Of a stretch of 64,000 nt of DNA, positions 24,203-52,053 are shown piece by piece (the stretch's first letter is position 1; the number at the start of each line of letters is the position of its first letter). Source of the stretch: Armatimonadota bacterium (GTDB lineage: Bacteria > Armatimonadota > UBA5829 > DTLH01). The stretch spans positions 127,608 through 191,607 of the forward strand of contig JBDKUN010000059.1 of NCBI GenBank assembly GCA_039679675.1, read 5' to 3'. The translations under genes were made by a program, and so were the position numbers. The notes under the pieces are model-generated. The model was not told the DNA's origin, made no database searches, and saw only the letters and a program-made list of their open reading frames with translations.

Positions 24203-25186
24203 CTATTCGTCTTTTGTATTAGCGAGAGCGCGTATTTCACCGCAGGTTACGGCGGCTACACCGACTTTTCTTACTGCAGCGCCGCCTGCCAGGTTGCCGA
24301 TCTTTGCCGCGGCCACCGGTGATGCTCCTGCCGCAAGGGCAAGACTGATTGCGCTGATTACAGTGTCCCCCGCGCCGGTGACATCATATACTTCTATAGG
24401 GACTGCAGGAAGCGTTGCGTCGAAGTCTTTGCTGAATATAGTAAGTCCAACAGAGCCGCGGGTTACTACCAGGCAATCAAGCGAAAGTTCCGATAACATG
24501 CTCCGCCCTGAGGCCTTGATAATCTCTTCGTCCTTAAATTTCAACCCGGCAACGGTTTCCGCCTCAGACTGGTTGAGTGCAACCAGCCTTGCACCCTGGA
24601 ACCCGCGAATATTGACCGGTTTTGCGTTTGCAGTGCATATCTTCCCCATTCCACTTGCAAGCGCGACAACTCTTGAGGCAACTTCCGGCTTCAGCACGCC
24701 TTTGTTATAATCAGAGAGCACCAGAACATCACAGTCTTTCAGTTTTTCGCGAATATTTTCCAGTATTTCCTCGATAACGGCTTCATCTACGGGATCCTGT
24801 GTCTCTCTATCGACCCTTACAACCTGCTGCCTGTGAGAAACCCATATCCGAGTCTTGCGCGTGGTCACGCGTGACTGGTCAACCACCAACCCGCTTGTGT
24901 CAACACCTGCATTAGAGAGTTTCTTCGCCAGCTCTTCTCCATACGGATCGTTACCGACCACGCCGACTACTGCCACGCTTCCGCCAAGTGCTCTGATGTT
25001 ATTTGCAACATTTGCAGCACCGCCGGGAAGCACTTCAGAGTCGCCATTTGCGTCTACCACGAGCACTGGCGCTTCAGGTGACACGCGGCTGGTTGTCCCC
25101 CAGATGTGCTCATCCACCATCAAATCACCGACGACAAGAGCCCTCAACTGGCCAAATCGTTCGAGAATGTGAGACAAGCTATCCAA
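24203..25186 (-). CDS. hldA: D-glycero-beta-D-manno-heptose-7-phosphate kinase (RfaE domain I / HldA-type PfkB kinase)
   Basis: ALVVGDLMVDEHIWGTTSRVSPEAPVLVV and the C-terminal DVTGAGDT motif. Only the kinase domain is present (327 aa). It is the last gene of the LPS cluster. Confidence 0.7.
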   Translation of the reverse strand: MDSLSHILERFGQLRALVVGDLMVDEHIWGTTSRVSPEAPVLVVDANGDSEVLPGGAANVANNIRALGGSVAVVGVVGNDPYGEELAKKLSNAGVDTSGLVVDQSRVTTRKTRIWVSHRQQVVRVDRETQDPVDEAVIEEILENIREKLKDCDVLVLSDYNKGVLKPEVASRVVALASGMGKICTANAKPVNIRGFQGARLVALNQSEAETVAGLKFKDEEIIKASGRSMLSELSLDCLVVTRGSVGLTIFSKDFDATLPAVPIEVYDVTGAGDTVISAISLALAAGASPVAAAKIGNLAGGAAVRKVGVAAVTCGEIRALANTKDE

Positions 25187-25190
25187 AGAC

Positions 25191-26147
25191 CTAACCCTCC
25201 TGTGACTCTATTACCGCAGCCGCGATTAGCGGCAGCATGATCTCATGATGCCCCACCAGCGATACCGACCTTCCTCCAAGCGCGCGTACCCGCCTAACAA
25301 TCTGTTCTTCTGATCGGTATTGGCGTATAAAGTCTAGGTTTACCGCAAATACTTTATCCATATTGCACCCGATGTTCGTTGCCATTGCAAATGACTTCAA
25401 TGCTACTTCGGGAAGTATTACGGCGGAGCCTACATTAAGGAGCACCCCACCCAACTGCATTAAATCTTCAATTTCGGCTGCGAATATCCTGAAGTCACGT
25501 AGCGAACAATCGCCTATGGCTGAACCATCGGCTCCCGGATGCATATGGACTATGTCCGTACCTATTCCGACATGCACCGTCACCGGAATTTCTGCTCTAC
25601 TTGCCGCAACAAGCAGACTTGAGCCTATACCCGGCGCATTTGACTTTATAAGCCTTTCGCCAAGAGATTCACCAAATCCCCGTTTCGATTCCAGACCGGC
25701 TACAGCCGCAGAGTTCACAAACTGAGCGGTCTCCATGCCCATGCCGAACTTGCCTTCCTTCAGGCCGGCCACTACATCCTCTGATGTACGGCCGTAGAGC
25801 GCCATTTCCGTGTCATGTATCGCGCCTGCGCCGTTCATGGCAAGCCCAGTGATGATCCCTCTGGCAATAAGGTCTGCTATAACCGGAGACAGCCCGCATT
25901 TGATGACATGAGCTCCGATTGAAAGGATAACCGGGCGCTTCTCGTGGGCCGCATCCGAGATGGCTGTTACTGCTGCTTTAATATCCCTGCCTGCCAGAAT
26001 ATCAGGAAAAGATGAAATAAGGTCGGTTATCTTACCGCCCGCTCGCCATGCAGACGCCGCACTTCCAATCTCGACCTTTCTATGCTGTTTTCCGACCTCA
26101 TGAGCCTTTATCCGGCTGCAATCAAATTCTCTAAACTTCGATGACAT
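25191..26147 (-). CDS. Deoxyhypusine synthase-like (DHS-like NAD-binding fold) protein of unknown role
   Basis: GRDIKAAVTAISDAAHEK...LSIGAHVIKCGLSPVIADLIARGIITGLAMNGAGAIHD aligns by eye with human DHPS GRAVQQVNAMIEKK...[38 protein letters not shown], including the shared IKC, and IPVTVHVGIGTDIVHMHP aligns with [21 protein letters not shown]. The assignment is by memory only. Confidence 0.4.
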   Translation of the reverse strand: MSSKFREFDCSRIKAHEVGKQHRKVEIGSAASAWRAGGKITDLISSFPDILAGRDIKAAVTAISDAAHEKRPVILSIGAHVIKCGLSPVIADLIARGIITGLAMNGAGAIHDTEMALYGRTSEDVVAGLKEGKFGMGMETAQFVNSAAVAGLESKRGFGESLGERLIKSNAPGIGSSLLVAASRAEIPVTVHVGIGTDIVHMHPGADGSAIGDCSLRDFRIFAAEIEDLMQLGGVLLNVGSAVILPEVALKSFAMATNIGCNMDKVFAVNLDFIRQYRSEEQIVRRVRALGGRSVSLVGHHEIMLPLIAAAVIESQEG

Positions 26148-26169
26148 CTTTATCTTTCCCTAGAAGCGG

Positions 26170-27132
26170 TCAGCTTTTCTGCCAACTACCGAACAACTTT
26201 ACATACAACCAACTTTCGCGCTTTGGCCTGCCCAATATATACCAGAGAGCAACCAACCCATTTACAACTACCTTTCGGCGGTAATGCTCAGCAAGACCGA
26301 GTGTCACTACAACACCCAACGCATTCAACAGGGCCTGTATCAGCGCATTAGTAAACTGACAGCACCCTACCATCAGCTCAGGGACGATACCGAAATGCTT
26401 ACGCATGTAATAACAACGGCCCCGATTTCGTTCAATATAGGATGCTATACGTTTACACCTTACCGAAACCCCAATAAAATGTATGATCTTCGCTTCAGGT
26501 ACATATTCCATCTGCCAACCGGCATCAGCGATCATCTTGGAGAGGTCCGGGTCTTCGCAATAGAAGAAATATGACTCGTCAAAACCGCCAGCCTCTTTAA
26601 ATGCTGCCTGTCTGACCATAATAGCTGCTGCGCAAAAATATGCAATTCCTGCAAGCTGCTCTTTCCGCTCCACCATACTGGCAATTTTATGTCTGACACT
26701 CTTCCTGGCGCTCGAAAAAAGCACCGTTTTGGGAGTCATCAGCAGTGCCACAACTTCCTGATCCTTGTCATCAGCGTCCACAATCCGAGGCGAAGCTATA
26801 CCTGCTTTTGGGTTAGATTCCAGAGCTGATGCAAGACGTTCAACTGCGTTTGGACATACCAGGGTATCGCTGTTTAGAATGAACAGAAACTCACCCTGTG
26901 CCTCTTTTGCGCCAAGATTATTCGCCCGCCCAAACCCAAGATTTTTACTGCACTTTATTACCTTGACCGATGGAAACCGCTCACAAATAGCCTCAGCAGA
27001 CCCATCGGATGATGCATTGTCTACAACGATTATCTCGTAAGGCCTTGGGGGAACCGTCTTCTCAAGAGATGCTATGCAATCAATTACATGCTGTTTTGTA
27101 TTATGATTGACTATGATAACGCTAATATCCAA
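26170..27132 (-). CDS. Glycosyltransferase family 2 (GT-A fold)
   Basis: MDISVIIVNHNTKQHV...EIIVVDNASSDGS...ILNSDTL is the canonical GT2 N-terminal DxD-type signature. Confidence 0.75.
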   Translation of the reverse strand: MDISVIIVNHNTKQHVIDCIASLEKTVPPRPYEIIVVDNASSDGSAEAICERFPSVKVIKCSKNLGFGRANNLGAKEAQGEFLFILNSDTLVCPNAVERLASALESNPKAGIASPRIVDADDKDQEVVALLMTPKTVLFSSARKSVRHKIASMVERKEQLAGIAYFCAAAIMVRQAAFKEAGGFDESYFFYCEDPDLSKMIADAGWQMEYVPEAKIIHFIGVSVRCKRIASYIERNRGRCYYMRKHFGIVPELMVGCCQFTNALIQALLNALGVVVTLGLAEHYRRKVVVNGLVALWYILGRPKRESWLYVKLFGSWQKS

Positions 27133-27149
27133 TTTATTTCTGCTAATAA

Positions 27150-27920
27150 CTACTGTCTATTCAATTTTTCTTTGCAGTTGTTGCTTTGTAATTCCCACAT
27201 AATGGAGTAATGCACCAACCTGAAAAAAACGGGCATTGCTGAAAATACCAACCCCGGCACTCCGTGCATAAACCCCCGCCACAGGATGTAACGCCTGAAA
27301 AAGAGGTTCGGAAGCTCTGCAAAGTGACGGAATCCTACACGTTTTCCCTTAGCGAAATCGTCTTCTGCGCAGGCTCTTGCATACCGAAGGTTCTTCTCAT
27401 ACCACTCTTTAAGCTCTGTTATATTATAATGTTCAAGATACCCCTTGACCCAGCCGCATTTGCCACCGTAAACAAGCTTTGCATGAGTCGAACGGTCGAT
27501 AAACTTCACTCTATCCCTGCGGAATAGCCTTATCTCAGGCTTGGGGTGCATAACCCCGTATTCAGCCGGTTTATCTCTGTAATAATTTCTTCTGAGCATC
27601 TTGTAAACATCATACTCAGGCTCAGTTTTCAGCAGAGACTGTATGTTCTTCGCAAGCTCAGGAGATACAGCCTCGTCTGCATCTATAAAGACCGTCCAGC
27701 GGTTCGAACACTTGTCTGCAGCAAGCTGCCTCTGCCTGTTGGAACCCGGCCACTCGTTATAGAAAAACTTATCTGTGTATTCCCGGCATATATCTTCGGT
27801 TTTGTCAGTGCTGCCGGAGTCGACAATAACTATCTCATCCGCCCATTTGACCGATTCCAGGCACTCACGTATGCAATTCTCTTCATTCTTCGTAATGATG
27901 ATAACTGAAAGCTTTTCTAT
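27150..27920 (-). CDS. Glycosyltransferase family 2 (LPS-core WaaE/KdtX-like), apparently initiating at a non-canonical ATA codon
   Basis: The ATG ORF (27150..27599) is only the C-terminal half. Extending the same frame upstream gives a stop-free EKLSVIIITKNEENCIRECLESVKWADEIVIVDSGSTDKTEDI..., the conserved GT2 N-terminus. There is no in-frame ATG, GTG or TTG before it. An ATA at 27920-27918 sits 7 nt after a GGAGG and overlaps the upstream gene's TAG (ATAG), and it gives a 256-aa product typical of this family. Confidence 0.55.
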   Translation of the reverse strand: MEKLSVIIITKNEENCIRECLESVKWADEIVIVDSGSTDKTEDICREYTDKFFYNEWPGSNRQRQLAADKCSNRWTVFIDADEAVSPELAKNIQSLLKTEPEYDVYKMLRRNYYRDKPAEYGVMHPKPEIRLFRRDRVKFIDRSTHAKLVYGGKCGWVKGYLEHYNITELKEWYEKNLRYARACAEDDFAKGKRVGFRHFAELPNLFFRRYILWRGFMHGVPGLVFSAMPVFFRLVHYSIMWELQSNNCKEKLNRQ

Positions 27921-29011
27921 TTCTCTTTCCTCCGCTGGGAGATGAGTTCAGATGCAGCATCGAATGCACGATCAACCGTAATAGCCTGAAGACATTTAAA
28001 ATCTCCGCATGTAGGCTTATGTCCGCACGGAGCACATGAAAGTTGCTCCCAGAGCACTTTCGACTTATCGCAGTACGGCCCGGTTATCCTCGGATCAGTC
28101 GGCCCAAAGATCGCAACCACCGGAGTTCCCACTGAAACCGCGAGATGCATCGGCCCTGTATCATTACTGACTACCGCATCGCATTTTTCGAGGACCGCCG
28201 CAAGCTGACCGATCTTCGTGCGCCCAGCAATATCAATCGGCGGGTTCTTTGCCTTCCGCATCACTTCATCTACTGTTTCGCGCTCGGATGCCGACCCTAC
28301 TATTAGCACATTTAGGCCATCTGAGGCAAGCCTGTCCGCCAATGCTGCATACCGGTCAGGGAACCACTGCTTCGCAGCAACACTCGATCCGGGACTGATA
28401 GCTACAGTCGGTCTGTCTTTCGTTATTCCGACGGATTCGAGCAGGTCTGCTGCAAATTCACGTTCCTCTTTCGATGTAAACATCTCCATTTTGGGGTTTC
28501 GGACATCCGCGCCGATCGTCCGCACAAGATCGAGATACCAATCCACCCTGTGGCAGCCGGGCCTGCGTGAAACTGGATGCGTCAGAAACCTTGTCAGCCC
28601 AGGCTCATCGAACCCGACTCTTGTGGTCGCACCGGCCCACTTTCCGAGCGCGGCCATTCTGACGGAACTGAAGGTAAAGAGCACGCTCGTATCGCACCCG
28701 CCGGCGCGCACCTTGGGAATCATCTTGATGATCGAAAGGGGCCCTCTTTTTCGCGTCAGAACCTCATCAACGCATGGATTATGATTGAGAAGGTCCTCCA
28801 TACCGGAAAGGACGACATTGCGAATGCGCGCATCAGGAAAATTTTCTTTCAGTGCCCTTATCGCCGGTGTAGTGAAGAGGATATCACCAATGTGGTTTAG
28901 GTTGAGCAGAAGCAGGCAGCCATGATTGTTATGCAAATCAGGCAACCTCTTTTCGTGTATTTGGTTGAAGCGCGTTCTGCAAAACATCGCGATATACGCG
29001 CAGATTGCCAT
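27917..29011 (-). CDS. waaF: ADP-heptose:LPS heptosyltransferase (GT9; WaaF/RfaF-like)
   Basis: LLLNLNHIGDILFTTPAIRAL (the GT9 N-terminal R-x-SS-x-GD region) and C-terminal VSNDTGPMHLAVSVGTPVVAIFGPT. The true start is probably a later ATG, GTG or TTG than 29011. Confidence 0.7.
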   Translation of the reverse strand: MAICAYIAMFCRTRFNQIHEKRLPDLHNNHGCLLLLNLNHIGDILFTTPAIRALKENFPDARIRNVVLSGMEDLLNHNPCVDEVLTRKRGPLSIIKMIPKVRAGGCDTSVLFTFSSVRMAALGKWAGATTRVGFDEPGLTRFLTHPVSRRPGCHRVDWYLDLVRTIGADVRNPKMEMFTSKEEREFAADLLESVGITKDRPTVAISPGSSVAAKQWFPDRYAALADRLASDGLNVLIVGSASERETVDEVMRKAKNPPIDIAGRTKIGQLAAVLEKCDAVVSNDTGPMHLAVSVGTPVVAIFGPTDPRITGPYCDKSKVLWEQLSCAPCGHKPTCGDFKCLQAITVDRAFDAASELISQRRKEK

Positions 29012-30077
29012 CGACCATCTGATCTACGCTGAATTCAGACTGTACTAACCGGCGGCCGTTTTCACCGAACCGTTTTCCCAGCTCTCTATCACGGAATAAC
29101 TTAAGCACTGATTGCTTAATCGCCTCTGTGTCTTCGGGCTGGATCAAAAACCCGGTTTCCCCATCTCTGACTATCTCAGGAATACCGCCGACAGCCGATG
29201 CAACTATCGGAACACCGGCATACGCAGCCTGCAGCAGCGATACACCAAGCCCTTCACGAAGAGCCGGATGCACTACTACATCCAGATTAGTAAGAATCCT
29301 GTTCATATCTTCTCTGAATCCCGCAAACTGCACTTCTTCCGATATTCCCAGTTCCTGCACCCGGCTTTCAAGTTGAGCTCTGAGCGGGCCTTTACCAAAT
29401 ATCAGAAACCGAGCATCGGGAAACTCCTTCAATATATCCGGTATGACTGAAAAGAAATACCTGTGGCCCTTGCGCTCAATAAGTTGAGCTATTACACCTG
29501 CTACTGGAGCATCCTGAGAAATACCGAATTCTGACTCAAACCACTTTCTATCCCTATCGCACTGAGGTTTTGCCGTTATGATAGCACTGTGGACTAGCTC
29601 AAGCCGTTCTTCATCGATACCACAGTCACTGAGCACTTTTTTTATCCCACCGGAGATAGCTATGATCTTGTCCGGGATCACATTATATTTGAGACGCCCA
29701 AGAGCTCCCAGGCTGATACGGTCATCGACTCGGCGGGACAATACCACTGCGGGGACTCGCGCCATCCTTGCAGCTACCCCGCCCAAAATCTCTGCGCCTC
29801 TCCGGCTGTGGAGATGCACTACATCAGGCTTTACCTTCCGCACCTCACTATAGACTCTCAACACAAGCGAGGGATCACAGTCGCACCATACACTTACGGG
29901 ATGAACGGGTATGCCCGACCGGCGAGCCTCAGTCTCGATAGCGCTTCCCTTCGCGCATACAAGATCGACACCATGCCCTCTCTCGGCCAAGCCGCGCATA
30001 AGATAGACGACCTGCAGAGCTCCGCCGTACATATGCCTGCCGAACTCGATATGCACTGTATTTATACGGCCTTTCAA
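28938..30077 (-). CDS. Glycosyltransferase family 4 (GT-B; WaaG/RfaG-like)
   Basis: GGALQVVYLMRGLAERGHGVDLV... and C-terminal EGLGVSLLQAAYAGVPIVASAVGGIPEIV (the E-x7-E GT4 motif). Confidence 0.7.
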   Translation of the reverse strand: MKGRINTVHIEFGRHMYGGALQVVYLMRGLAERGHGVDLVCAKGSAIETEARRSGIPVHPVSVWCDCDPSLVLRVYSEVRKVKPDVVHLHSRRGAEILGGVAARMARVPAVVLSRRVDDRISLGALGRLKYNVIPDKIIAISGGIKKVLSDCGIDEERLELVHSAIITAKPQCDRDRKWFESEFGISQDAPVAGVIAQLIERKGHRYFFSVIPDILKEFPDARFLIFGKGPLRAQLESRVQELGISEEVQFAGFREDMNRILTNLDVVVHPALREGLGVSLLQAAYAGVPIVASAVGGIPEIVRDGETGFLIQPEDTEAIKQSVLKLFRDRELGKRFGENGRRLVQSEFSVDQMVDGNLRVYRDVLQNALQPNTRKEVA

Positions 30078-31132
30078 CTCTCTGCTCCCTCAAAACTGTG
30101 CGGAAATATGGCTGACTGCGCCGCCGATAAAACTTCCTCCGGCGTTACATCCGTTATGCACTCAAAACGTTCGCATGTCGGCTTTTTAAAGCATGGTACA
30201 CAGTCCATATCTTTTCTGACAACTGCGAAATTATCCCGATTAATATGGTTCTGCCAGGCGGTTGTCGGACCGAATATTCCTATAGATTGCTTTCCGATTG
30301 CAACGCCGGTGTGAAGAAGCCCTGTGTCGACCGCAACTACCAGAGAGCAACTGTCCTGAACTGCCACAGCCTGTTTAAGCGTTGTGCAGCCTGCTATATT
30401 AATCGCAGGGGCCTCTATTTTTGCCAAGATCCTATCGATCATCTCGCGGTCTTTTTTCACGCCAAGGAATATACTCCTCATGCCCATCTCATTCCACAAA
30501 AGATCCGCAAGTTTCGACCATCCTTCTTCAGACCAATGCTTGTTAGCCCTTGTAGTCGCAGGACAAAGGGCTGCCGCCTTTTCTCCTACGTTCAATCCAG
30601 CTTCTATTAATATCTTCGATGCTGACTCTCGTTCCTCATCACTGATAACCACCCGCATATCCCCGTCCTGGTCATCAGGAATGATCCCAAGCGGTTCAAG
30701 AAGCCTCATATAGCAGGCCATACCGTGACGGCAACGGCGTTTCGGAGCAGTTTTTTCGCAAGCTACGGTCTCATTGTAGGCTACTCCGCTGAACTCTCTG
30801 CTGTCAGCATAACCTATCCGGCGTTTTGCTCCCGATGCCGCAGTTACGAGGGCGCTCCGCGCTAATCCCTGGAAATCAAGAGCCACATCAAACTGGCGTT
30901 TTCTCAACACTTGCGTGAGTTTCAGAAAAGATGCCGGGCCGCTCCTGTCAAAGTTAATCGTCTCATCCACATCCGGATTGCCCTCAAGGATTCCAGCCGA
31001 TTTAGACTCGACTACCCAGGTAATCCTGGCATCCGGTATACGCCGTCTGAGCATGCGTACAGCAGCCGTAGTCATAACTACGTCCCCTATCGCACTCAGT
31101 CTGACGATCAATATGGATAAGTTGTTTGACAT
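30074..31132 (-). CDS. waaC: ADP-heptose:LPS heptosyltransferase (GT9; WaaC/RfaC-like)
   Basis: MSNNLSILIVRLSAIGDVVMTTAAVRMLR and C-terminal VAVDTGLLHTGVAIGKQSIGIFGPT. ATGA overlap with the downstream GT4 gene. Confidence 0.7.
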   Translation of the reverse strand: MSNNLSILIVRLSAIGDVVMTTAAVRMLRRRIPDARITWVVESKSAGILEGNPDVDETINFDRSGPASFLKLTQVLRKRQFDVALDFQGLARSALVTAASGAKRRIGYADSREFSGVAYNETVACEKTAPKRRCRHGMACYMRLLEPLGIIPDDQDGDMRVVISDEERESASKILIEAGLNVGEKAAALCPATTRANKHWSEEGWSKLADLLWNEMGMRSIFLGVKKDREMIDRILAKIEAPAINIAGCTTLKQAVAVQDSCSLVVAVDTGLLHTGVAIGKQSIGIFGPTTAWQNHINRDNFAVVRKDMDCVPCFKKPTCERFECITDVTPEEVLSAAQSAIFPHSFEGAES

Positions 31133-31153
31133 AATAAGGATTCAACCGGTTAC

Positions 31154-31894
31154 TTAATCGAACTCTTTCTGCTCCACTCCCGTATTAACAGTGATATCCT
31201 TTGTTTCTGTTGTCGCTGCCAGTTTTCCTTCACTGTTGTATACCTCAGCCTTGCATGGAGTCCAAATCCCGTTTACCTTGATATGGTTGAAGTATAGCGT
31301 CTTCACCTTGAGCGAGTCATCTCCGAACATCCTGTCGCGCCTCAACAATTTATAATCCTTACCGTCAATCCAGATCAATTGATACTTGCTGCTCTTGGCT
31401 GTCTTCAGCTTCAGAACATAAGCAAGTGAACCGTCTTCGTTCTTTTCAGTCCGGACCAGGCTGATATTGTAAATATCCCAGATGACATCAGATACTACGC
31501 CCACATCCAGCGGGCTCATTCGTTTTTCCTGCTCTTTCGATATATCTTCACGTTTTTTGTATCTCATAGACGGGATTCTAATGTGCCGGACATTACCTGC
31601 GGTGATGAATTCAACCTTCATCATACCCAGCACACCGTTTATCTTGAGGCTATCGGGGGCCTTAAACACTACTTTGGCGCTTTTAAACTCATAAAGCTCC
31701 GCGAAGACTTTGCCCATTTTCTGAAGCTCTCGCTGGTTGGAATTGACAACGACCAGATTGCAGCTAAGATCTTTCAGTCCACCTGCAGCCTTATGGACAT
31801 GAGTCTTGAGACTTTCCAGCTCATCTGCTGCGAAAAGCGTGGATGATATTGTTATCAAAGCTATAATTACTGCGAATCCGAATAACTTTTTCAA
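31154..31894 (-). CDS. Secreted LolA-like / outer-membrane lipoprotein-sorting-like protein (hypothetical)
   Basis: Signal peptide MKKLFGFAVIIALITISSTLFAA. The mature part has an alternating beta-strand pattern and is embedded in the LPS cluster. The family is not confidently assigned. Confidence 0.3.
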   Translation of the reverse strand: MKKLFGFAVIIALITISSTLFAADELESLKTHVHKAAGGLKDLSCNLVVVNSNQRELQKMGKVFAELYEFKSAKVVFKAPDSLKINGVLGMMKVEFITAGNVRHIRIPSMRYKKREDISKEQEKRMSPLDVGVVSDVIWDIYNISLVRTEKNEDGSLAYVLKLKTAKSSKYQLIWIDGKDYKLLRRDRMFGDDSLKVKTLYFNHIKVNGIWTPCKAEVYNSEGKLAATTETKDITVNTGVEQKEFD

Positions 31895-37576: not shown

Positions 37577-37735
37577 AGTTGTTTCCTAACTGCTTAAAGA
37601 GTTTCGGGTAATGATTGTAACAATCCTACGGACACATAACCAGTCAATGATAATGCTGCATCTGTTGTTTTTCGCTTACACCCGAAACTCTCCCGGAAGG
37701 AGTTTTGGCTGAAACGATATCTACTACTCGCTACA

Positions 37736-38248: not shown

Positions 38249-38280
38249 GAAGAAAGTCCTGCGTCTGAAAAGAAAGAAGC

Positions 38281-43819: not shown

Positions 43820-43835
43820 GGGTAACCTGTCCAGT

Positions 43836-44477: not shown

Positions 44478-44758
44478 TTCTGGTTGATTCCCCTTTTAAA
44501 TAATCAATGACGGAGGACGACCGATGCCTTTCGCGCTCGATTACCGCCTCCGCCGTCTGCATTATAACAGAAACGGCAGGGCTGGGACAAGCGCAGTTGG
44601 GTCGACCGCGTCTCCGTCTATAGATAGACGAGTCATCAAGACAAGCATTGCCGGGATGGAATCAGGTTTGAGGATTTGTGATACAGAATTTGAAAAGGCC
44701 CTGAATTTGTAGATCAGGGCCTTGTGAATATCTCAGTCAATGTTAAGTAAGTATAAGA

Positions 44759-46645
44759 TTAGAACGCCTGGCCTATACTGAAATGGGTCCTGGCTCCGTC
44801 GCTTCCTATTCCGTAATCGAAACGAAGGTTTCCTATAGGTGTATTTACTCGAAGACCTATGCCTGTTCCGATACTCGGGCTGAACCCTGAGTGCTGGTCA
44901 AGATCATCGGATATACTGTATGTTCTTGGAGCACCCCAGGCATCCCCATAATCCAAGAACAAAACGCCGGTCAACCCCTGGGATACCGGATGGCGGTATT
45001 CAATGCTCAAAACAGCCATCTTATCACCCCAGAATCTGTCTTCCCTGTAACCCCTAAGGCTTTCAGCACCTCCGACAAAGAATTGCTCGAAGAACGGAAG
45101 GTCTCCGTTCGATACGCCGGCAAGCAGCCTCGCTGCGAGGGTAACTCGTTTGTCAGTCGGGGCTTCTTTACGGCCGCCCTTGCTCCAGTAATGTCTGATA
45201 TCGATCTGCAGTTTCTGGAACGGCCCTTTGATATTCGCTTCATTTACAACCAAGCCGTTTTCGTTTGCAGGCGGAACATTCAGATCCTTCGCAGTATACT
45301 GCTCAACCACATCCGCATTACCGGCTTCAAACGACACGGACCTATACCAACCTACTGCCGGGTCACTATCAAAATCCCTTGTATTATTAACAATTCTGCT
45401 CGTTGCACTGTGCACGGGGCCACTCTGTGCGACAAACCTGTTCACATCACTCGGCTGCAAACTGCTTATATTAAGGGTTGTAGTGTCTACAGTTTCCGTC
45501 CTTAGTGTAATATAACCTCTTGTATAATCACTGATAGGCCTGCTCAAACCAAGGGTGCCACCCTTACGCCGTTCATCATATGTCTGGCCGTCTACATCGC
45601 CGTCATTTCCGAAAAGCGCGGATGAAAACCTGTAAAGCAGCTTGTCGAACACGTTCACTGAAAGCGAAGTATGATATTTGTCGATCCACGGTTCGTGGAA
45701 CCCGACCTCGTAACTGTTCGAGCCGCCAATCCCGTCACTTGTGCCGGTCTCCCACAGAAGTGTCAGGCCCTGTCCAAGCCCACGGAAGTTGGTTTCCGTC
45801 ATTTCAGCCCGTCCTACTAACCTGCTTCGTGAGTTGTAACCTACACCAACCGATACATTTCCGGTCTTCTTTTCAGTCACCGGTATCGCAACACCGATTT
45901 TGCCTATTGAAGAACCTGGTTCTATCTTTGGGGCCTGCACATCCTCTAAAATGTCCAGATTCCAGATTCGAGCGATGTCGTCTCGAAGAGTCTTCATATT
46001 AAAGTAATCACCCGGCTTCTCTTTCATTTCGCGGGTGAACACTTCTATCCTGGTTTTCTTGTTTCCGACTATATCTATCTTCTCGACCGTGCTCACAAGT
46101 ATTGCGATTGTCAATGTCCCGGTCTTCGGATCTATACCACTATCTTCCGTAACGTGCGCAACATATCCCAGGTCGCGATAGTAGTCCTGAATAGCTGATA
46201 TATCTATATCGACAGTGTTTGTGTTCAACACCTGGTTCGGCTTCGTCCTCATGATGTTGAGGATTGTATCTTTCCCAACCGGTTCCGAACCGACTATGTT
46301 TATCTCTTTGACCAATGGGTTTTCCACAACATCAAAGATCACCCTTACTCCCTCAGGAGTGTCCTCTGTCCGTACAGGGACCGCGCTGAAGTAACCAAGC
46401 GCGCTTATAGCCTCACGATCCTTCTCTACAGCCTCCTTTGTGTATGTCGCGCCCGGAGCCAGTTTGATAACGTTTTCAACCGTTTCCTTGTTGATATTCC
46501 GGTTACCTGTGATGACTATCTGAGTCACCTTAGCCCCTTCCTGCGCAAAGGCGGAAAGGCTCAGAGAGAAGATCAGTGCCGTGGTCACTGCCAGAACCAG
46601 TACCAGGGCCGATTTCCGTCCGATTTGAGATTTACTGCATAACAT
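44759..46645 (-). CDS. bamA: Outer membrane protein assembly factor BamA (Omp85 family), short form with about 3 POTRA domains
   Basis: Signal peptide, then POTRA repeats (ITGNRNINKETVENVIKLAPGATYTKEAVEKDREAISALGYF...), then a C-terminal beta-barrel ending in ...IGQAF (terminal aromatic). Only 628 aa. Confidence 0.8.
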   Translation of the reverse strand: MLCSKSQIGRKSALVLVLAVTTALIFSLSLSAFAQEGAKVTQIVITGNRNINKETVENVIKLAPGATYTKEAVEKDREAISALGYFSAVPVRTEDTPEGVRVIFDVVENPLVKEINIVGSEPVGKDTILNIMRTKPNQVLNTNTVDIDISAIQDYYRDLGYVAHVTEDSGIDPKTGTLTIAILVSTVEKIDIVGNKKTRIEVFTREMKEKPGDYFNMKTLRDDIARIWNLDILEDVQAPKIEPGSSIGKIGVAIPVTEKKTGNVSVGVGYNSRSRLVGRAEMTETNFRGLGQGLTLLWETGTSDGIGGSNSYEVGFHEPWIDKYHTSLSVNVFDKLLYRFSSALFGNDGDVDGQTYDERRKGGTLGLSRPISDYTRGYITLRTETVDTTTLNISSLQPSDVNRFVAQSGPVHSATSRIVNNTRDFDSDPAVGWYRSVSFEAGNADVVEQYTAKDLNVPPANENGLVVNEANIKGPFQKLQIDIRHYWSKGGRKEAPTDKRVTLAARLLAGVSNGDLPFFEQFFVGGAESLRGYREDRFWGDKMAVLSIEYRHPVSQGLTGVLFLDYGDAWGAPRTYSISDDLDQHSGFSPSIGTGIGLRVNTPIGNLRFDYGIGSDGARTHFSIGQAF

Positions 46646-46764
46646 TGGTCAACGCACCTCCAGCGTATTATCCATCATATCCTGAACCATAACAAAAAGA
46701 AACCTATTTTTGCAGACGTTCGCATCGAATAGATATAGCCAACTGATCAGCCATAAGTTCACAA

Positions 46765-49700
46765 TCAGAATCTCCGGTTGTACGACATTTCCAGCACACC
46801 CAGGCGGCGGGAGTCAGTTACGTATGAAAATTCCAGCCAGTCACGAATCCTGTAACTCAGAGTCAACGAATACGTCGCTCCGGTTATCGTCTGAGCGCCG
46901 GTCACAATCCTCCAGTATGAAAGATAGAAATTATCGAACAATTCCCTCGATAAAAATACGGCAAGTGGCTGCTCAAAACCGTATTCAATAGAAAAATCTT
47001 CAAGACCAAGAGCTTCTATGAACGTTGTTTCCAACGGGTCGAACAGGCGGGGAGATACCGCCACGCTGAACAACTCTCTAAGCTGGTCTCTTAACTCGGT
47101 CTCTCCCGTTCCGAAAATGTCTTCAAAGTGGCCCAGCGCTGCCAATATCTGCGTTCTGGTCAATCCTGCCGGATCACTCTTGAGTGAGATATTTTCAGGC
47201 TCAAGCTTGTCCAGTGGGCCTGAAACATCAAGGGTAATCTTATATCGCTGCTGTGTTCCCAGCCCTGAGGTCGCTGTAATGGTTGTCTGAGCATGCAGAT
47301 CAACAGTCACGCCTGCTGTCTGTCTGCCAGGAGTCCAATTGACATTGATATTTCCGCGTGTAATCCTCATTCTCGTTGTCGGGAATCGCAGAGTCCCGCT
47401 ATCAATACGTATTCCTGCTGTTATGAGCGGCTTCTCCAAAGAACCCGCGACCTGCCCGCTTCCGCGTAAAAGCGCGATAATACTTGGGTTTCTGAACCAG
47501 ACATTATCTCCTATGTTAAACCCGATATTAAACTTCGGATTTATAACATACCTGGCAATCCCTGTTGGGCTGACTGCTGGAACGCGGGATAGGATAACCG
47601 ATGCATCGCTTAATGCAACCTGTCCTGAAATCAGAGGCTCCGTAACGGATCCTGAAACAGCAAGCCCGTTTACCGTTGAGAATGTGCTTGTCACGCGCTC
47701 CTGATAACCCAGCAGGTTCTGCTCAACAAGTTTCAGATTGTTGAGGTTCAGAACCAGGTTTATAGCTCCTCGCTGACTGCCGGAAGCGGGCTTGAATAAA
47801 TTATGCAGCGATATTGTACCGCCTGGAACCGCATCGAATGTCCCGCCGCCGCTCGATCCGCCAGACAGTGTCTCCACTCGGACCAAATCCTGATCGAATA
47901 CAAGATTTGCCTGTATATTTGTAAACTCCGTCTGAAAATTCCTGACGTTGATGTTGCCGTCCTTAATAACCATCTGCCCGCCAAGATTTGGATTACTTAT
48001 TGAACCAGTGAGGTCCAGCGTCGCAGAAATAAGCCCAGGGTTCTTTGTGTCAGCAGTGACAGCATCCGATAACAGGGTAAGCACTTCTAGCGTCTGCTCT
48101 TCCAGTGCCGCGTGGAACGCAATCGGCTGGTCTGTAGGTATGGTGAATGTCTGCCAGTTCCAGGGAAGTGTTCCGAAGAATGCCGCGGATTGCGAGTCCC
48201 TCGTCACAAGTGCCCGGCTGATTTCAATAGTATTGCGCCCGATAGTTATCTGGCTGGCACGAAGCCTGTCAAATGAAATACCGGAGATTACCGGGTTTAC
48301 GACTTCAGCTGATGCCGTAACGAGCGGTGCATCAATAGGCCCTTTCACTGTTGCACGGACAGTAGCTGTGCCGCTGATGTGCGTCGGCCCGGCAGCGGGA
48401 GTAAGTGCATCCAAGTCCACGTTGTAAGCATCTATTTCAAGATCAGTCTGTCCGTTGGCGATCAAAGTACCTTGTGCTGATACGCTCAGAGCCTCAGCTG
48501 TAGCTTCGAACGACTCCAGTATGAGCTCGCCCCGGCGCGAAACCGCAGAAAGATCGATTCGAGCGTTTTTAATCTCCGAAATGTCAACATCCTGAGCTGT
48601 AAGGCTGAACTTGGCTTCCGGCTCATCTATCGGCCCTGATGCGGAAAATGATGCTGAAAGAATTCCTGTATCTGGACGCCTTAACTTCGCGAGAAGCGAT
48701 CTCAATCCCTCGCCTCCGGGCTGACCGATATATGGACTCTCCGACACAGCCGTGTAGATAACGGGATATGAGAAGTTTTTCAATACGCCGCCATCTATCT
48801 GCACTGTTCTTTTTTCAGTATCCAATGACGCGCGCTCTACAGAAAGGACACCGCTCGCCGACTGAAGGTTAACATCCGCGATAACAAGTGATTTTCCACT
48901 CCATTTGACCTCAGATGCGAACCTGTCGAATTTCACTGTGTTGATTACAGGATTATTTGAGACAACAGTTGCCTCCACCCTTGGATTACCTACCGTACCG
49001 GCTATACGGCCTTTTGCGTCCACTGTCCCAGAGAGAAGCGCATACGGTTTTGTGTACTGGCTCAATTGAACAAGGGCGATGTTGTTTGCAATAAAGTTGA
49101 AGGAGATATTGCCTTTAGCGTCTATCACTCCATCAGCGCTGAATACCGCGTTATCGCTTTGAGCCAGAAGACCGGTTAACCGAAGCTGCTTGTCGGAATA
49201 AGAAAATCCTGCGCGAGCCTGTGTGACCGGATACCCGGCGAATGAACCATCCGACAGTCTCAATGTCCCCGCTGCTGTTATGTTCGGAGCAGTGCCTCGT
49301 ATTACTACGCTCCCTGTAACACTGCCGGTAATATCTGCTTTAACCTGCAGTAGTGAGAGTATTCGCTCAGCCGGAGCTTCTGAGACATCGATATTGAAAT
49401 TAATGGTCGGTGAGGGTGTGCCTATTCCGCCTATTTTACCGTGGAGCGCTACTTCAGCAGGTAAAACACGGATAACCGCATCTTCCAGGGTAATACCGGA
49501 CGATGTTGCTACGAGTCGGCCTCTTGCATAATCAAACGCAAAACGCTGGAAGCGGCCGTTGAACACTTCCGCTCTTCCCGTTACTACCGGATTACTGAAA
49601 GGCCCTTTAACACTGCCGTTAAAATCAACTATTCCTTTATAACCCGTCAGACCGAAAGGTTTCTGCAAGATACTCAGGTCTACTCCCACGGCAGACACGC

Positions 49701-51327
49701 GTAGATCCATCTTCGCCGGAGTTATCTCTCCTGATGCCCTTATGACCCCGCTTGCAACGGAACCCGCCATGCTCTTTATACTTACATGGCTGTCCCTGAT
49801 CGTCAGCTGTGCTACGGCATCCCTATATGCAACATTGTCCAGGGTTCCACGTGAAACTTGAACATTAGCACCAAGTACCGGACTTGATGATAGCCCGATC
49901 ACAGTAAAATGCCCCGTTGCGGTACCTCTCAGCCCGGATTTTCGCAATTGAGGTATCCGGCTGAGCTCCACACCGGCACCTGTACCGGAAAGCGCCAATC
50001 TTGCGGCTCCATTAATGATCGTAACAGAGCCGGACGCTGTTATTCTTCCATTCAGCGCCCGCGCGGACGCGCTTTGCACAAGTATTGATCTCTCTGCATA
50101 AGTGGCTCTAATGTTAATACCTGCCGCATGGTAGCCGTTGAATCCTACCGATGGGATTTTGCCTCTTACAGCTATGACGATATGTTTGCTGGGCCCGATA
50201 ATATCGAGAGAAAGCGGGCCATGGCCTGAAATCATGATTCTGTTCAGATTGGCTGGGGATTTAAAATCTTCGATAACCCTGGAATAATCGAAGCTGCCGG
50301 ATGTAATGCGTAAATCGAACCGGGGATTCGCAAACCCTGCCATTGTGCCGTTCATGCGCATCTGAGAACCCGTAATAGAGCCTGCAAGATTGAAATCCAG
50401 TGTCTGATTTACCAGCCTTATCCTGCCTTTGATGCTAGTAGCAGGTTTTCTCAGACCTGAAACAACCGCCTGAGCGTTCCTGATATCCGCTGATCCCGCA
50501 TAACTCCAGATTCTTCTGCCCTTTACCAACCGTCCGGTCACGCTCAACCGTGCATCGCCGCGCCCGCTTCGGACTCTAACCGCTCCCTGCTTTATGAAAT
50601 AGTCCATCCAGTAGGAAGCCGCCGCATTTTCGGCTGTTATATCCGTTGCTACCACGCCTGCAGTGTTGTCAATGGAGCCAGATATTCTGACTATATTAAA
50701 GAGCTTCATACCCGGCCCTTTAGCAGAGAGGTTATATTCATAAAAAGGAGCATTTGACGCATCGAACGTCCCATTGATATTGACAGCTTTTGTAACTGCC
50801 GGTTTCGGGCCCGGTGTACGCGCCAGCCAGTCTCTGAACACGAGTGTGCCGTCCGTAATATCGACTACACCAATGAATGGAGGGCGGCGAGGGCCAGGCT
50901 TTCTTTTAAAGAGATCGCTGATATTGAGGCGTCCGTTTCTGAAGCGCTCCAGCAGAATAGTTGGGGAAATGAGTTTGATAGAATCCACGCTTTGTATGGC
51001 CGGGACTCGTCTGAACACAATGTCTCTCAGGCGGAAGTTGACGATAACCTGCTTGGTTTCGAGCAGCGTGCCTTTTTTGAATGATTCACCATTAGCGATT
51101 CGCAGGCCGTGTATGGTAGCAGTGCCTTTTAATGGAGATACGTCCACTTTGCCAACTTCGACTGCGCGGTTTGTCTGCTGCTCTATCTGTTCGACGAGTA
51201 TTACATCTATATGCCGGATCGTATACCTGACCTGGTTTATTATGTAGAACACAGCGGCGGCGAGAAACACCGTGAGCGGGATCACGATAAGCAAAAAGAT
51301 TGTCAGGCGCCGCCGTCTTGAATTCAT
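46765..51327 (-). CDS. tamB: TamB/AsmA-family translocation and assembly module protein (DUF490 C-terminus)
   Basis: 1520 aa, N-terminal signal-anchor (RLTIFLLIVIPLTVFLAAAVFYI), and a long beta-rich periplasmic body. Located immediately upstream of bamA in the same orientation. Confidence 0.7.
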   Translation of the reverse strand: MNSRRRRLTIFLLIVIPLTVFLAAAVFYIINQVRYTIRHIDVILVEQIEQQTNRAVEVGKVDVSPLKGTATIHGLRIANGESFKKGTLLETKQVIVNFRLRDIVFRRVPAIQSVDSIKLISPTILLERFRNGRLNISDLFKRKPGPRRPPFIGVVDITDGTLVFRDWLARTPGPKPAVTKAVNINGTFDASNAPFYEYNLSAKGPGMKLFNIVRISGSIDNTAGVVATDITAENAAASYWMDYFIKQGAVRVRSGRGDARLSVTGRLVKGRRIWSYAGSADIRNAQAVVSGLRKPATSIKGRIRLVNQTLDFNLAGSITGSQMRMNGTMAGFANPRFDLRITSGSFDYSRVIEDFKSPANLNRIMISGHGPLSLDIIGPSKHIVIAVRGKIPSVGFNGYHAAGINIRATYAERSILVQSASARALNGRITASGSVTIINGAARLALSGTGAGVELSRIPQLRKSGLRGTATGHFTVIGLSSSPVLGANVQVSRGTLDNVAYRDAVAQLTIRDSHVSIKSMAGSVASGVIRASGEITPAKMDLRVSAVGVDLSILQKPFGLTGYKGIVDFNGSVKGPFSNPVVTGRAEVFNGRFQRFAFDYARGRLVATSSGITLEDAVIRVLPAEVALHGKIGGIGTPSPTINFNIDVSEAPAERILSLLQVKADITGSVTGSVVIRGTAPNITAAGTLRLSDGSFAGYPVTQARAGFSYSDKQLRLTGLLAQSDNAVFSADGVIDAKGNISFNFIANNIALVQLSQYTKPYALLSGTVDAKGRIAGTVGNPRVEATVVSNNPVINTVKFDRFASEVKWSGKSLVIADVNLQSASGVLSVERASLDTEKRTVQIDGGVLKNFSYPVIYTAVSESPYIGQPGGEGLRSLLAKLRRPDTGILSASFSASGPIDEPEAKFSLTAQDVDISEIKNARIDLSAVSRRGELILESFEATAEALSVSAQGTLIANGQTDLEIDAYNVDLDALTPAAGPTHISGTATVRATVKGPIDAPLVTASAEVVNPVISGISFDRLRASQITIGRNTIEISRALVTRDSQSAAFFGTLPWNWQTFTIPTDQPIAFHAALEEQTLEVLTLLSDAVTADTKNPGLISATLDLTGSISNPNLGGQMVIKDGNINVRNFQTEFTNIQANLVFDQDLVRVETLSGGSSGGGTFDAVPGGTISLHNLFKPASGSQRGAINLVLNLNNLKLVEQNLLGYQERVTSTFSTVNGLAVSGSVTEPLISGQVALSDASVILSRVPAVSPTGIARYVINPKFNIGFNIGDNVWFRNPSIIALLRGSGQVAGSLEKPLITAGIRIDSGTLRFPTTRMRITRGNINVNWTPGRQTAGVTVDLHAQTTITATSGLGTQQRYKITLDVSGPLDKLEPENISLKSDPAGLTRTQILAALGHFEDIFGTGETELRDQLRELFSVAVSPRLFDPLETTFIEALGLEDFSIEYGFEQPLAVFLSRELFDNFYLSYWRIVTGAQTITGATYSLTLSYRIRDWLEFSYVTDSRRLGVLEMSYNRRF

Positions 51328-51336
51328 TGCAGGTTA

Positions 51337-52053
51337 TTATCCTAACCCATCCTTGAGGTTCAGAAAATTTGTAAAATGAGCCACAATCCGTTCTTTCACT
51401 GTTTTCATATCCGGCGCGGGCTCAAGAAGCCGTTTGAGCGAGGTAATCTGCTCGGATTGAAGCCCACACGGATTGATAAAACCGAAGTGACTCAGGTTCG
51501 GATCGACGTTGAATGCGAAACCGTGATAGGTTACGCCTCCACGAATTGCGATTCCTATGGAACATACCTTCTTGCCGCATGTCCAAACCCCTGCAAGGCC
51601 ATTGTTGCATCCTTCCAGACCGAAATCGGCAAGTGTCGAGATGATTATACTTTCTATAAGACGCAGAAAGCTGTGTACATCGCTCTTTATAAGGCGAAGA
51701 TCGATTATAAGATAGCCGGTAAGCTGCCCTGGGCCGTGATATGTAACGTCTCCGCCTCGGTCTGTCTTTACTATTTCTATCCCATTTTTCTTGAGTATAC
51801 TCTCAGAAACCAGAAGATTTTCAGCATGGGTGCTGACTCCGAGGGTCATCACGGGATAATGCTCCAGGAGCACCAACGCGCCGCCGATTTTTTTGGCTTT
51901 GACATCCGCATGAAGCGACAACTGCAGATCAAGCGCATCTCTGTATCTCATCAGTCCTGCATCTATGACTTTAAACTGGGAATTTCCGGCATCTGACTGG
52001 CGGATATAAGATCTTTCCAAAAACTTGTTCAAGTGGGTTTTCTCCGAGCGCAA
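51337..52053 (-). CDS. lipB: Octanoyltransferase (lipoyl(octanoyl) transferase)
   Basis: KTDRGGDVTYHGPGQLTGYLIIDL is the LipB signature. Conserved catalytic Cys region present. Confidence 0.8.
   Translation of the reverse strand: MRSEKTHLNKFLERSYIRQSDAGNSQFKVIDAGLMRYRDALDLQLSLHADVKAKKIGGALVLLEHYPVMTLGVSTHAENLLVSESILKKNGIEIVKTDRGGDVTYHGPGQLTGYLIIDLRLIKSDVHSFLRLIESIIISTLADFGLEGCNNGLAGVWTCGKKVCSIGIAIRGGVTYHGFAFNVDPNLSHFGFINPCGLQSEQITSLKRLLEPAPDMKTVKERIVAHFTNFLNLKDGLG

Follow-up and report, generated by a model that had tools for sequence, protein, structure and literature searches.

Is a long same-strand run of envelope genes in a bacterium of the Armatimonadota one operon, a by-product of strand bias, an acquired island, or a member of a recognised class of outer-membrane gene cluster? 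We examined this for a 64,000-nucleotide stretch of contig JBDKUN010000059.1 (assembly GCA_039679675.1; the whole stretch is called the window), in which positions 24203–52053 hold genes for outer-membrane protein (OMP) assembly and for lipid A synthesis, lipid A export and core assembly of lipopolysaccharide (LPS). We conclude with high confidence that the region is the Armatimonadota version of a conserved outer-membrane-biogenesis cluster of deep-branching diderms, split into several predicted transcription units. Listing and translation of the open reading frames (ORFs) between 22 and 54.5 kb gave 23 consecutive minus-strand ORFs that carry 24 functions, since waaA and lpxK are fused. The same-strand run reported in a first-pass annotation of this DNA therefore stands, but its figure of 24 consecutive genes had counted the fusion twice.

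The gene identities bore out that OMP assembly, lipid A synthesis, export and core assembly are gathered in one run, and nearly all gene labels of the first-pass annotation hold against Pfam and NCBIfam. LipB, LpxD, LpxC, LpxA, LpxB and LpxK score above their NCBIfam equivalog cutoffs, and family-level Pfam matches were obtained for TamB, BamA, Skp/OmpH, FabZ, the WaaA domain, the LpxL-family acyltransferase, two GT9, one GT4 and two GT2 glycosyltransferases. In order of transcription, and named by their predicted activities, the genes are:

51337–52053, minus: lipB, lipoyl(octanoyl) transferase, the first gene (Pfam LplA-B_cat 157.8 bits; TIGR00214 162 bits, cutoff 83.6)
46765–51327, minus: tamB, AsmA-like, predicted inner-membrane-anchored and envelope-spanning protein of 1520 aa (Pfam TamB 120 bits, DUF748 70.6 bits)
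44759–46645, minus: bamA, Omp85 insertase of 628 aa with three POTRA domains detected (Pfam Omp85 126.7 bits; TIGR03303 234.5 bits, below the cutoff of 297)
43836–44477, minus: skp/ompH, periplasmic chaperone (Pfam OmpH 67.8 bits, cutoff 32.4)
42689–43819, minus: membrane-anchored coiled-coil protein of 376 aa, proposed to be long-armed and Skp/OmpH-like
41650–42702, minus: lpxD (TIGR01853 332.6 bits, cutoff 242.5)
40799–41653, minus: lpxC (TIGR00325 230.2 bits, cutoff 187)
40297–40830, minus: fabZ (Pfam FabA 119.4 bits)
39476–40300, minus: lpxA (TIGR01852 319 bits, cutoff 231)
38281–39504, minus: lpxB (TIGR00215 223.9 bits, cutoff 190)
37736–38248, minus: ICMT/PEMT-type membrane methyltransferase, candidate LmtA-like (Pfam PEMT 34.3 bits, cutoff 25)
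35807–37576, minus: msbA-like lipid A/LPS flippase, an ABC exporter (best NCBIfam family TIGR02203 MsbA, 518 bits, below the cutoff of 602)
35152–35847, minus: DUF374 (PF04028), LpxJ-family late (3′ secondary) acyltransferase (Pfam 71.8 bits, cutoff 26.8)
32817–35210, minus: waaA-lpxK fusion of 797 aa, 3-deoxy-D-manno-oct-2-ulosonic acid (Kdo) transferase plus tetraacyldisaccharide 4′-kinase (Pfam and NCBIfam)
31891–32820, minus: lpxL-family lipid A secondary acyltransferase (Pfam Lip_A_acyltrans 194.5 bits)
31154–31894, minus: secreted LolA_like (PF17131) protein (Pfam 33.1 bits, cutoff 30)
30074–31132, minus: GT9 heptosyltransferase, nearest to WaaC (type I) (Pfam Glyco_transf_9 130.5 bits; TIGR02193 151.6 bits, below the cutoff of 185)
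28938–30077, minus: GT4 glycosyltransferase (Pfam Glycos_transf_1 138.5 bits)
27917–29011, minus: GT9 heptosyltransferase, nearest to WaaF (type II) and type III (Pfam 155 bits; TIGR02195 133.0 bits, cutoff 134.6)
27150–27920, minus: GT2 glycosyltransferase with a non-canonical ATA start that overlaps the GT9 stop (best NCBIfam matches GT2-type, all well under cutoffs)
26170–27132, minus: GT2 glycosyltransferase (Pfam Glycos_transf_2 92.1 bits)
25191–26147, minus: GSU2086-family protein with a deoxyhypusine-synthase-like fold (NCBIfam NF052581 350.9 bits, cutoff 250)
24203–25186, minus: hldA-like D-glycero-beta-D-manno-heptose-7-phosphate kinase (PfkB), the last gene (TIGR02198 rfaE_dom_I 320.3 bits, cutoff 345)

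The order of these genes is conserved. A scan of a genome collection with the WaaA-LpxK fusion yielded 24 loci, mostly from Armatimonadota and Abditibacteriota, onto which the cluster proteins were mapped by tblastn. The order from lipB through hldA is identical in the closest relative (JBDKSP010000095.1; 87% amino-acid identity on the fusion), and the series bamA-skp-X-lpxD-lpxC-fabZ-lpxA-lpxB-msbA-DUF374-waaA/lpxK-lpxL-GT9, where X is the gene in the slot between skp and lpxD, is kept in loci L002–L004, L008, L011, L012 and L022–L024. Four further loci, L030–L033, were found via BamA homologues of 40–63% identity; they read lipoate gene, tamB, extracytoplasmic function (ECF) sigma factor, bamA, skp, X, lpxD, lpxC, fabZ, lpxA, lpxB, (PEMT), msbA, DUF374, waaA. 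A locus of the Atribacterota reads tamB-bamA-skp-lpxD-lpxC-lpxA. The flanking genes differ in every locus compared, and because the order is kept regardless, the arrangement appears to be under selection. The synteny comparison that the first-pass annotation had proposed thus revealed a conserved order across Armatimonadota and Abditibacteriota, with the backbone also in Atribacterota; no relative came up when metagenomes were scanned with TamB peptides.

Fusions recur within this order. The waaA-lpxK gene of the window encodes a Glycos_transf_N domain at residues 47–229 and an LpxK domain at 462–793 (Pfam; TIGR00682 lpxK 221.8 bits, cutoff 92), and most of the 24 loci gave matches to both of its halves (many from Armatimonadota and Abditibacteriota, one from Thermodesulfobacteriota). 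WaaA is a standalone protein in L030–L032, and fabZ and lpxA are fused in L030 and L031 (15869–17179 and 15906–17204 of these loci respectively).

The genes are also tightly packed. At 19 of the 22 junctions the neighbours overlap or are separated by 22 bp or less; the three wide gaps lie between bamA and skp (281 bp), the methyltransferase gene and msbA (159 bp), and tamB and bamA (119 bp). Six overlaps are of 4 bp (lpxD/lpxC, fabZ/lpxA, lpxK/lpxL, lpxL/LolA-like, GT9/GT4 and GT9/GT2). Overlapping stop and start codons within the blocks suggest translational coupling, and the pathway enzymes are probably made in linked stoichiometry. A shared strand by itself says little for a cluster: about 40 of the 48 ORFs of at least 150 aa in the window (∼83%) are encoded on the minus strand, the whole window has negative GC skew, and the minus-strand run extends past the cluster to 19350, through a cold-shock gene and a MoxR-type operon. 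The features that go beyond chance are the close spacing, the coherence of functions and, chiefly, the synteny kept in relatives down to ∼40% BamA identity.

Gene clusters of this kind are known from other deep-branching diderms. The locus of Negativicutes and Halanaerobiales combines LPS synthesis and transport genes with TamB, BamA, up to three Skp, OmpM and conserved hypotheticals, and the synteny of lpxABCD is very widely conserved (Antunes et al., 2016, PMC5007114). Like that cluster, the one described here places TamB, BamA and Skp beside lpxD-C-fabZ-A-B and genes for late lipid A synthesis and Kdo transfer (lpxK, waaA, lpxL); the Firmicutes cluster has multiple Skp-type genes and hypotheticals, was likewise used for annotation by synteny, and is read as an ancestral locus (PMC5007114). 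In contrast, the 23 cluster genes and the flank proteins scanned include no lpxI, kdsABCD, lpt, OmpM/SLH porin, TolC or flagellar ring genes. Beyond the Firmicutes set, the window has the LmtA-like methyltransferase, LpxJ, the WaaA-LpxK fusion, heptosyltransferases, HldA, the GSU2086-family protein, LolA_like and a lipoate gene, and its relatives an ECF sigma gene. Dictyoglomus has a 10-gene cluster, TamB-BamA ×2-Skp ×2-LpxD-LpxC-LpxA-FabZ-LpxB (PMC5167688). It has the backbone in common, in unchanged order and with a pair of Skp-type genes separating bamA from lpxD, but ends after the lpxB-like gene; the window cluster runs on for another 14 kb, with genes for export, late acylation and core assembly. 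Both the idea of an outer-membrane cluster and its backbone are thus already published, and the window holds the Armatimonadota member of a recognised class rather than a new type of system.

In Escherichia coli K-12 (194–206 kb segment checked), rseP-bamA-skp-lpxD-fabZ-lpxA-lpxB are contiguous, and six genes stand in the same order as in the window. RseP is the protease that activates sigma-E, and the E. coli bamA locus belongs to the sigma-E envelope-stress regulon. A component of an ECF sigma pathway hence lies directly upstream of bamA in both settings: RseP in E. coli, and the ECF sigma gene itself in L030–L033. The E. coli lpxC, msbA-lpxK, waaA, lpxL/M, waa core genes, hldE and tamB are found at other loci. 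The statement that these functions are scattered in model proteobacteria is accordingly right for lpxC, msbA-lpxK, waa, lpxL/M and tamB, but not for the backbone.

We propose that an ancestral backbone, tamB-bamA-skp-lpxD-lpxC-fabZ-lpxA-lpxB, would supply beta-barrel insertion, a trans-envelope AsmA-like protein and the early lipid A steps. In this phylum it would have been extended downstream by the methyltransferase, the MsbA flippase, LpxJ and LpxL, the fused Kdo-transferase/4′-kinase, a core block of heptosyl- and glycosyltransferases, and HldA.

How this array might be transcribed is indicated by the following sites:

52082–52110, minus: lipB promoter-like site, sigma-70-type, TTGACC-N17-TATACT (motif scan)
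46646–46764, minus: tamB-bamA spacer with an ECF sigma fossil (∼46700–46744; translation) and a weak promoter-like site (46695–46667; motif scan)
44692–44723, minus: intrinsic-terminator-like hairpin 36 nt past the bamA stop, a 10-bp GC-rich stem followed by UUUU (folding)
44626–44652, minus: GGCAAT-N16-CGTCT, ECF-sigma-promoter-like (motif comparison)
44561–44590, minus: predicted extended −10 sigma-70-type skp promoter, TTGTCC-N18-TG-T-TATAAT (motif scan and alignment)
44509–44554, minus: 5′ leader hairpin CGGAGGC...GCCTCCG at the predicted skp transcript start (folding and five-locus comparison)
37577–37735, minus: lineage-specific insertion of ∼145 bp between the methyltransferase gene and msbA (absent from L025, an 87% relative, where the gap is 10 bp)

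The bamA-skp spacer (44478–44758) contains, in this order, the terminator hairpin, the ECF-like motif, the extended −10 promoter and the leader hairpin. The hairpin past bamA has a predicted free energy of −17.8 kcal/mol (z −6.35; none of 200 shuffles folded as stably), and a comparable hairpin with a T-run lies at the same place in L025 and L031 as judged by eye. An alignment of six loci shows no variation in the TTG and TGnTATAAT columns of the skp promoter, and TGnTATAAT also precedes skp in L002 and L008; the promoter is kept in at least eight loci of the phylum. The leader hairpin carries GGAGG in its 5′ arm and CCUCC in its 3′ arm; across five loci its stem is invariant, while its loop varies in length and sequence. 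A fixed stem with a varying loop argues for an RNA hairpin, for example of the 5′ stabiliser type, rather than for a dimeric operator; a covariation test over these five loci found no compensatory changes, the stem being sequence-invariant. The hairpin of E. coli ompA mRNA is an example of such a stabiliser.

ECF-sigma promoters combine a −35 element with AA(C/T) and a −10 element with CGTC. The GCAAT-N16-CGTCT motif is equivalently placed before skp in L001, L002, L003, L004, L025, L030 and L031, and the stricter GGCAAT form in L001, L003, L004, L025, L030 and L031 but not in L002. We consider GGCAAT-N16-CGTCT a candidate ECF promoter, and the only such candidate left in the window. A second GGC(A/T)AT-N16-CGTCT match, in the tamB-bamA spacer, had raised the number in the window to two (0.19 expected), as if the two were a shared ECF promoter; it was rejected because it is a coding remnant (WLYLFDANV) of a lost sigma factor, whose intact gene in L030 contains the homologous motif.

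The sigma factor in question is encoded between tamB and bamA in all four of the more distant loci (181–284 aa):

L030, 9400–9957: intact ECF sigma gene
L031, 9251–9796: intact ECF sigma gene
L032, 9400–9966: intact ECF sigma gene
L033, 9064–9918: intact ECF sigma gene

In the window and in L025 this spacer measures merely 119–141 bp. Its translation reads SWLYLFDANVCKNRF in the window and WLYLHCKNVCKNRFR in L025, matching TWLYRIAVNVCKNRF of the intact sigma proteins of L030–L033; because these translated remnants match, we regard the spacer as a sigma-gene fossil, and the comparison indicates that the window lineage and L025 lost the ECF sigma gene and kept a short remnant. About 4.4 kb upstream of the cluster, at 56493–57822 on the minus strand, lie a SigB/SigF-type sigma factor (regions 2, 3 and 4) and an adjoining RsbW-like anti-sigma kinase. 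This factor is not of the ECF type and so is no obvious replacement for the lost one.

At the other end of the first block, the head of the cluster is a divergent promoter region common to hisS-aspS, and the sequence upstream of lipB contains TTGACC-N17-(G)GTATA(C/A)T in the window as well as in L025, L030 and L031. Taken together, the locus is predicted to comprise at least two transcription units, and probably three or more, rather than a single operon. Unit 1 would run from the conserved promoter at 52.1 kb through lipB-tamB(-bamA) to the terminator past bamA; unit 2 would start at the extended −10 promoter, with the ECF-like motif upstream and the leader hairpin, and cover skp through at least the lpx genes; a possible unit 3 would lead from the lineage-specific insert into msbA and onwards. 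That insert is bounded by a 13-bp inverted repeat (arms 37680–37692 and 37597–37609) and includes TG-T-TACAAT, which resembles an extended −10 element. The insert is possibly a small mobile element or one resembling a miniature inverted-repeat transposable element; no other copies were found in the window.

The first-pass annotation had described the run as uninterrupted and strongly co-regulated, which in its strict form would mean one operon-like unit of 28 kb transcribed from a single promoter upstream of lipB. The common strand, the close packing and the conserved promoter before lipB fit such a unit, and a terminator scan returned no terminator-like site in the intergenic gaps. The scan, however, missed the stable hairpin and U-run 36 nt after bamA only because of its 9-nt loop, the −35 TTG and the TGnTATAAT of the predicted skp promoter that follows do not vary among six aligned loci, a conserved leader hairpin comes next, and the sigma factor inside the cluster of the relatives implies internal regulation. 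With a predicted terminator after bamA and a conserved predicted promoter before skp, a single co-regulated unit was not borne out and we consider it improbable.

Replication-strand bias and inertia of gene order, without selection to keep these functions together, are a still less probable origin for most of the run. Such an origin would account for the excess of minus-strand ORFs, the uniformly negative GC skew, the continuation of the run through unrelated genes to 19350 and the presence of lipB, which has no obvious envelope role; yet the order persists at 40% BamA identity and the backbone across three phyla, the flanks are different at every locus, and the fusions and overlapping frames point to functional coupling. 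A horizontally acquired LPS/outer-membrane island would agree with the frequent mobility of large LPS-core and O-antigen loci and with the inverted-repeat insert inside the cluster. However, GC content within the cluster (0.45–0.525) is like that of the flanks, the Rfam and tRNA scans of the whole window gave no matches, so that no RNA genes flank the cluster, and the annotated ORFs of the cluster and its flanks include no mobility genes. Since, in addition, the cluster is present in every related Armatimonadota locus examined, with a divergence that tracks BamA identity, composition and distribution led us to reject the island as extremely improbable.

Several points nevertheless weigh against a conserved cluster split into several units as we describe it. 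BamA, MsbA, WaaA, HldA and both GT9 proteins score below curated NCBIfam cutoffs. The promoters and terminators are sequence predictions from which the transcription units are deduced; generic scans gave promoter-like sites in no excess over shuffles, and the U-tract of the terminator is short, with four U. The bamA-skp gaps of L011, L012 and L032 are short, so that bamA and skp may be joined by read-through or co-transcription in some members of the phylum. Finally, the cluster is not a self-sufficient module, because it lacks LpxH/LpxI/LpxG, the genes for Kdo synthesis and Lpt, and the remainder of the ADP-heptose route.

For lpxH/lpxI/lpxG, kdsA/B and gmhA/B, the first-pass annotation had proposed a check of whether they lie elsewhere. 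Within the window, neither the cluster nor the other annotated ORFs of at least 150 aa encode LpxH/LpxI/LpxG, Kdo synthesis, Lpt, GmhA/GmhB or HldC/HldD, with one LpxG/YaeI-like candidate, and no SLH or porin domain was found in the cluster or the flank proteins scanned. The candidate is:

61620–62459, minus: calcineurin-like phosphoesterase, 9.6 kb upstream of the cluster (best NCBIfam matches LpxG 166 bits, cutoff 350; YaeI 155.5 bits, cutoff 188)

It is the only candidate in the window for a UDP-2,3-diacylglucosamine hydrolase.

Among the lipid A genes, the methyltransferase deserves comment. Its longest ORF reaches 38479 and overlaps lpxB; because the product of a relative has 160 aa and the long N-terminus would overlap lpxB, its start is probably near 38248. 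The best NCBIfam family is LmtA_Leptospira (TIGR04571; E 5.8e-13, 49.1 bits, far under the cutoff of 325), and the protein also matches the ICMT structure PDB 4a2n (E 8.7e-5). Homologues of 40–52% identity hold the slot between lpxB and msbA in L025, L030, L031 and L033. LmtA is the lipid A 1-phosphate O-methyltransferase of Leptospira. Like LmtA, the window protein is a polytopic membrane methyltransferase of the ICMT/PEMT superfamily, here embedded between lpxB and msbA; unlike LmtA, it is no LmtA equivalog by score and has ∼160–170 aa against a model of 252 positions. A lipid A (phosphate) methyltransferase is its most likely identity, and we would put the chances of that at about even.

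Downstream of msbA, the first-pass annotation gave DUF374 by its domain name, but this is not a family of unassigned function: it has been renamed LpxJ, biochemically shown in Helicobacter, Campylobacter, Wolinella and Rickettsia, and is a 3′ secondary acyltransferase that stands in for LpxM in many bacteria (PMC6148475). By its predicted activities, the cluster thus appears to encode both late acylations, through LpxL and LpxJ.

The LolA_like protein has a signal peptide but lacks a lipobox cysteine. LolA_like genes accompany LPS-core genes in L008, L010, L024, L028, L029 and L037, in L029 beside the GSU2086-family gene. The canonical Lol pathway has been reported absent from Terrabacteria (PMC10665443), and a putative periplasmic acyl-chain-binding role is plausible for this protein. 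Further downstream, the frame of the first GT2 gene is open from 27947 and was listed in part by the ORF finder, yet contains no ATG, GTG or TTG down to 27600. In the sequence AATAGAA an ATA codon overlaps the TAG that ends the preceding GT9 gene, and a GGAGG stands 8 nt before this ATA; the first codon of the homologous gene is ATA in L001 (17280–17300; an 87% relative) and TTG in the more distant L004 (17248). This suggests a genuine non-canonical start or coupling by termination and reinitiation rather than a sequencing error.

At the other end of the cluster, lipB is not an envelope gene as the first-pass annotation had it, yet a lipoate gene (lipB or lipA) at the cluster head is kept across the phylum. 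The gene directly upstream of tamB was always lipoate-related, lipB in L025, L030 and L031 and a lipA-like radical SAM gene in L032 and L033, and the flanks beyond it differ among loci:

L030, 3923–4600: lipB
L031, 3818–4528: lipB
L032, 3879–4787: lipA-like
L033, 3188–4132: lipA-like

Use of the neighbourhood as an aid to annotating the unassigned members proved sound, and two of these merit separate treatment. The 376-aa coiled-coil protein is 100% identical to hypothetical protein ABFD64_12340 of an Armatimonadota metagenome-assembled genome (MAG), and the window protein itself matched neither Pfam OmpH (PF03938) nor any other family. In every Armatimonadota and Abditibacteriota locus examined that spans the interval, the slot between skp and lpxD is filled by a gene of similar size and architecture. 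The slot proteins share an N-terminal transmembrane helix, a V-Y-V-D/N..L...HP.W strand motif, a long coiled coil and a C-terminal R-I...V...A...G..V.F.....D.T..F motif; in L032 and L033 a lipoprotein-type cysteine signal (by eye) takes the place of the helix. An exhaustive profile search returned 82 representatives among 1.84 billion proteins, nearly all of 350–410 aa.

Several independent weak signals converge on a Skp-like reading. Alignment with hhalign to the Skp family of the cluster covered the C-terminal 51–53 columns (E ∼1e-3, probability 18–22%), and OmpH was the only recurrent Pfam family among the relatives, with weak matches in 9 of 60 (best E 0.0053). An AlphaFold2 model of the protein (mean predicted local distance difference test score 69.6, > 85 in the arms and C-terminal body) showed what looks like the order of elements of Skp, with arms of ∼90 residues. 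In Negativicutes and Dictyoglomus, moreover, bamA is as a rule followed by several Skp genes. We therefore lean slightly towards a membrane-anchored, long-armed Skp-like protein, which compared with Skp/OmpH (PDB 1SG2; SkpA in 8GL8) has about twice the length, predicted helical arms of ∼90 residues and an anchored N-terminus. At 0.15 nm per helical residue its arms would measure roughly 13 nm. If the reading is true, an inner-membrane- or lipid-anchored Skp paralogue could span the periplasm and hand nascent OMPs straight to BamA.

The GSU2086-family protein, labelled as deoxyhypusine synthase (DHS)-like in the first-pass annotation, is 100% identical to hypothetical protein ABFD64_12255 of an Armatimonadota MAG. 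It is no member of the deoxyhypusine synthase family by score (TIGR00321 19.4 bits against 304; PF01916 21.1 bits against 27). The GSU2086 family is large: more than 6,000 clusters match at E ≤ 1e-5, and the best-scoring 120, mostly from Armatimonadota, are 40–90% identical to the window protein; many His, Asp and Glu residues are invariant. With deoxyhypusine synthase, the C-terminal ornithine cyclodeaminase of AgrE-ArgZ and LOR-SDH the family has the fold in common, but identity is 13–19% and the invariant His/Asp/Glu set is its own.

The neighbourhoods of the family are those of LPS-core and heptose genes, not of polyamine or arginine genes, and this holds in two phyla. The gene adjoins a heptose kinase gene in the window, L001, L004, L024, L027 and L037; in L027 an HldC/KdsB-like gene and kdsA also stand beside it. 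In L028 and L037 it follows lpxL-GT9-GT9-(GT4)-GT2-LolA_like-methyltransferase, and in L036 KdsD/KdsC-like genes, a metallophosphoesterase and a PMT_2 transferase are near. In Geobacter sulfurreducens GSU2086 lies between hldE and gmhA, and in transposon sequencing (Tn-seq) it showed a fitness defect of −3.2 on electrodes, next to −3.1 and −3.7 for hldE and gmhA (PMC5585712). According to the TIGR00300 description and PMC13524815 (citing Desguin, 2025), the cofactor of characterised DHS-fold members is NAD or, for an ornithine cyclodeaminase, a nickel-pincer dinucleotide, and it serves transient oxidation. The GSU2086-family enzyme might thus reasonably be guessed to shuttle a hydride on a heptose or core sugar. 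If this is true, it could be a substitute for the ADP-heptose 6-epimerase outside the short-chain dehydrogenase/reductase superfamily, or a new core modification, common to Armatimonadota and Geobacter. That the conserved unassigned members amount to undescribed envelope machinery of deep-branching diderms, by way of the anchored Skp paralogue and this hydride-shuttling reading, is a speculative and on balance doubtful proposal.

Just downstream of hldA lies a cold-shock gene:

23632–23847, minus: csp (promoter 23929–23901; terminator-like site 23579–23565)

Its promoter, TTGACA-17-TACAAT with TG, is the best sigma-70 match of the region. A gene with a cold-shock domain also occurs shortly downstream of the LPS-core block in L028 and L037, with one to three genes between. 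The minus-strand operon that follows (19350–23389) encodes a polytopic membrane protein whose C-terminus carries a prokaryotic RING finger, proteins with DUF4129 and DUF4350, and a MoxR-type AAA ATPase, and is unrelated to the cluster.

Armatimonadota are a poorly studied phylum with two membranes, and their envelope bears on the age of LPS outer membranes and on their loss in Gram-positive lineages. The locus described here shows the ancestral tamB-bamA-skp-lpx backbone persisting in this phylum, and it supplies a near-complete parts list for a lipid A that is probably hexa-acylated, via LpxL and LpxJ, and possibly phosphate-methylated, in an LPS whose core, to judge from the same list, would contain heptose. 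It also offers three leads: the anchored Skp-like family, the GSU2086 family with its published Tn-seq phenotype in Geobacter, and the ECF sigma factor embedded in the cluster of most relatives together with the conserved skp promoter region. The locus should thus be useful for annotation at the level of the phylum and for comparative work.

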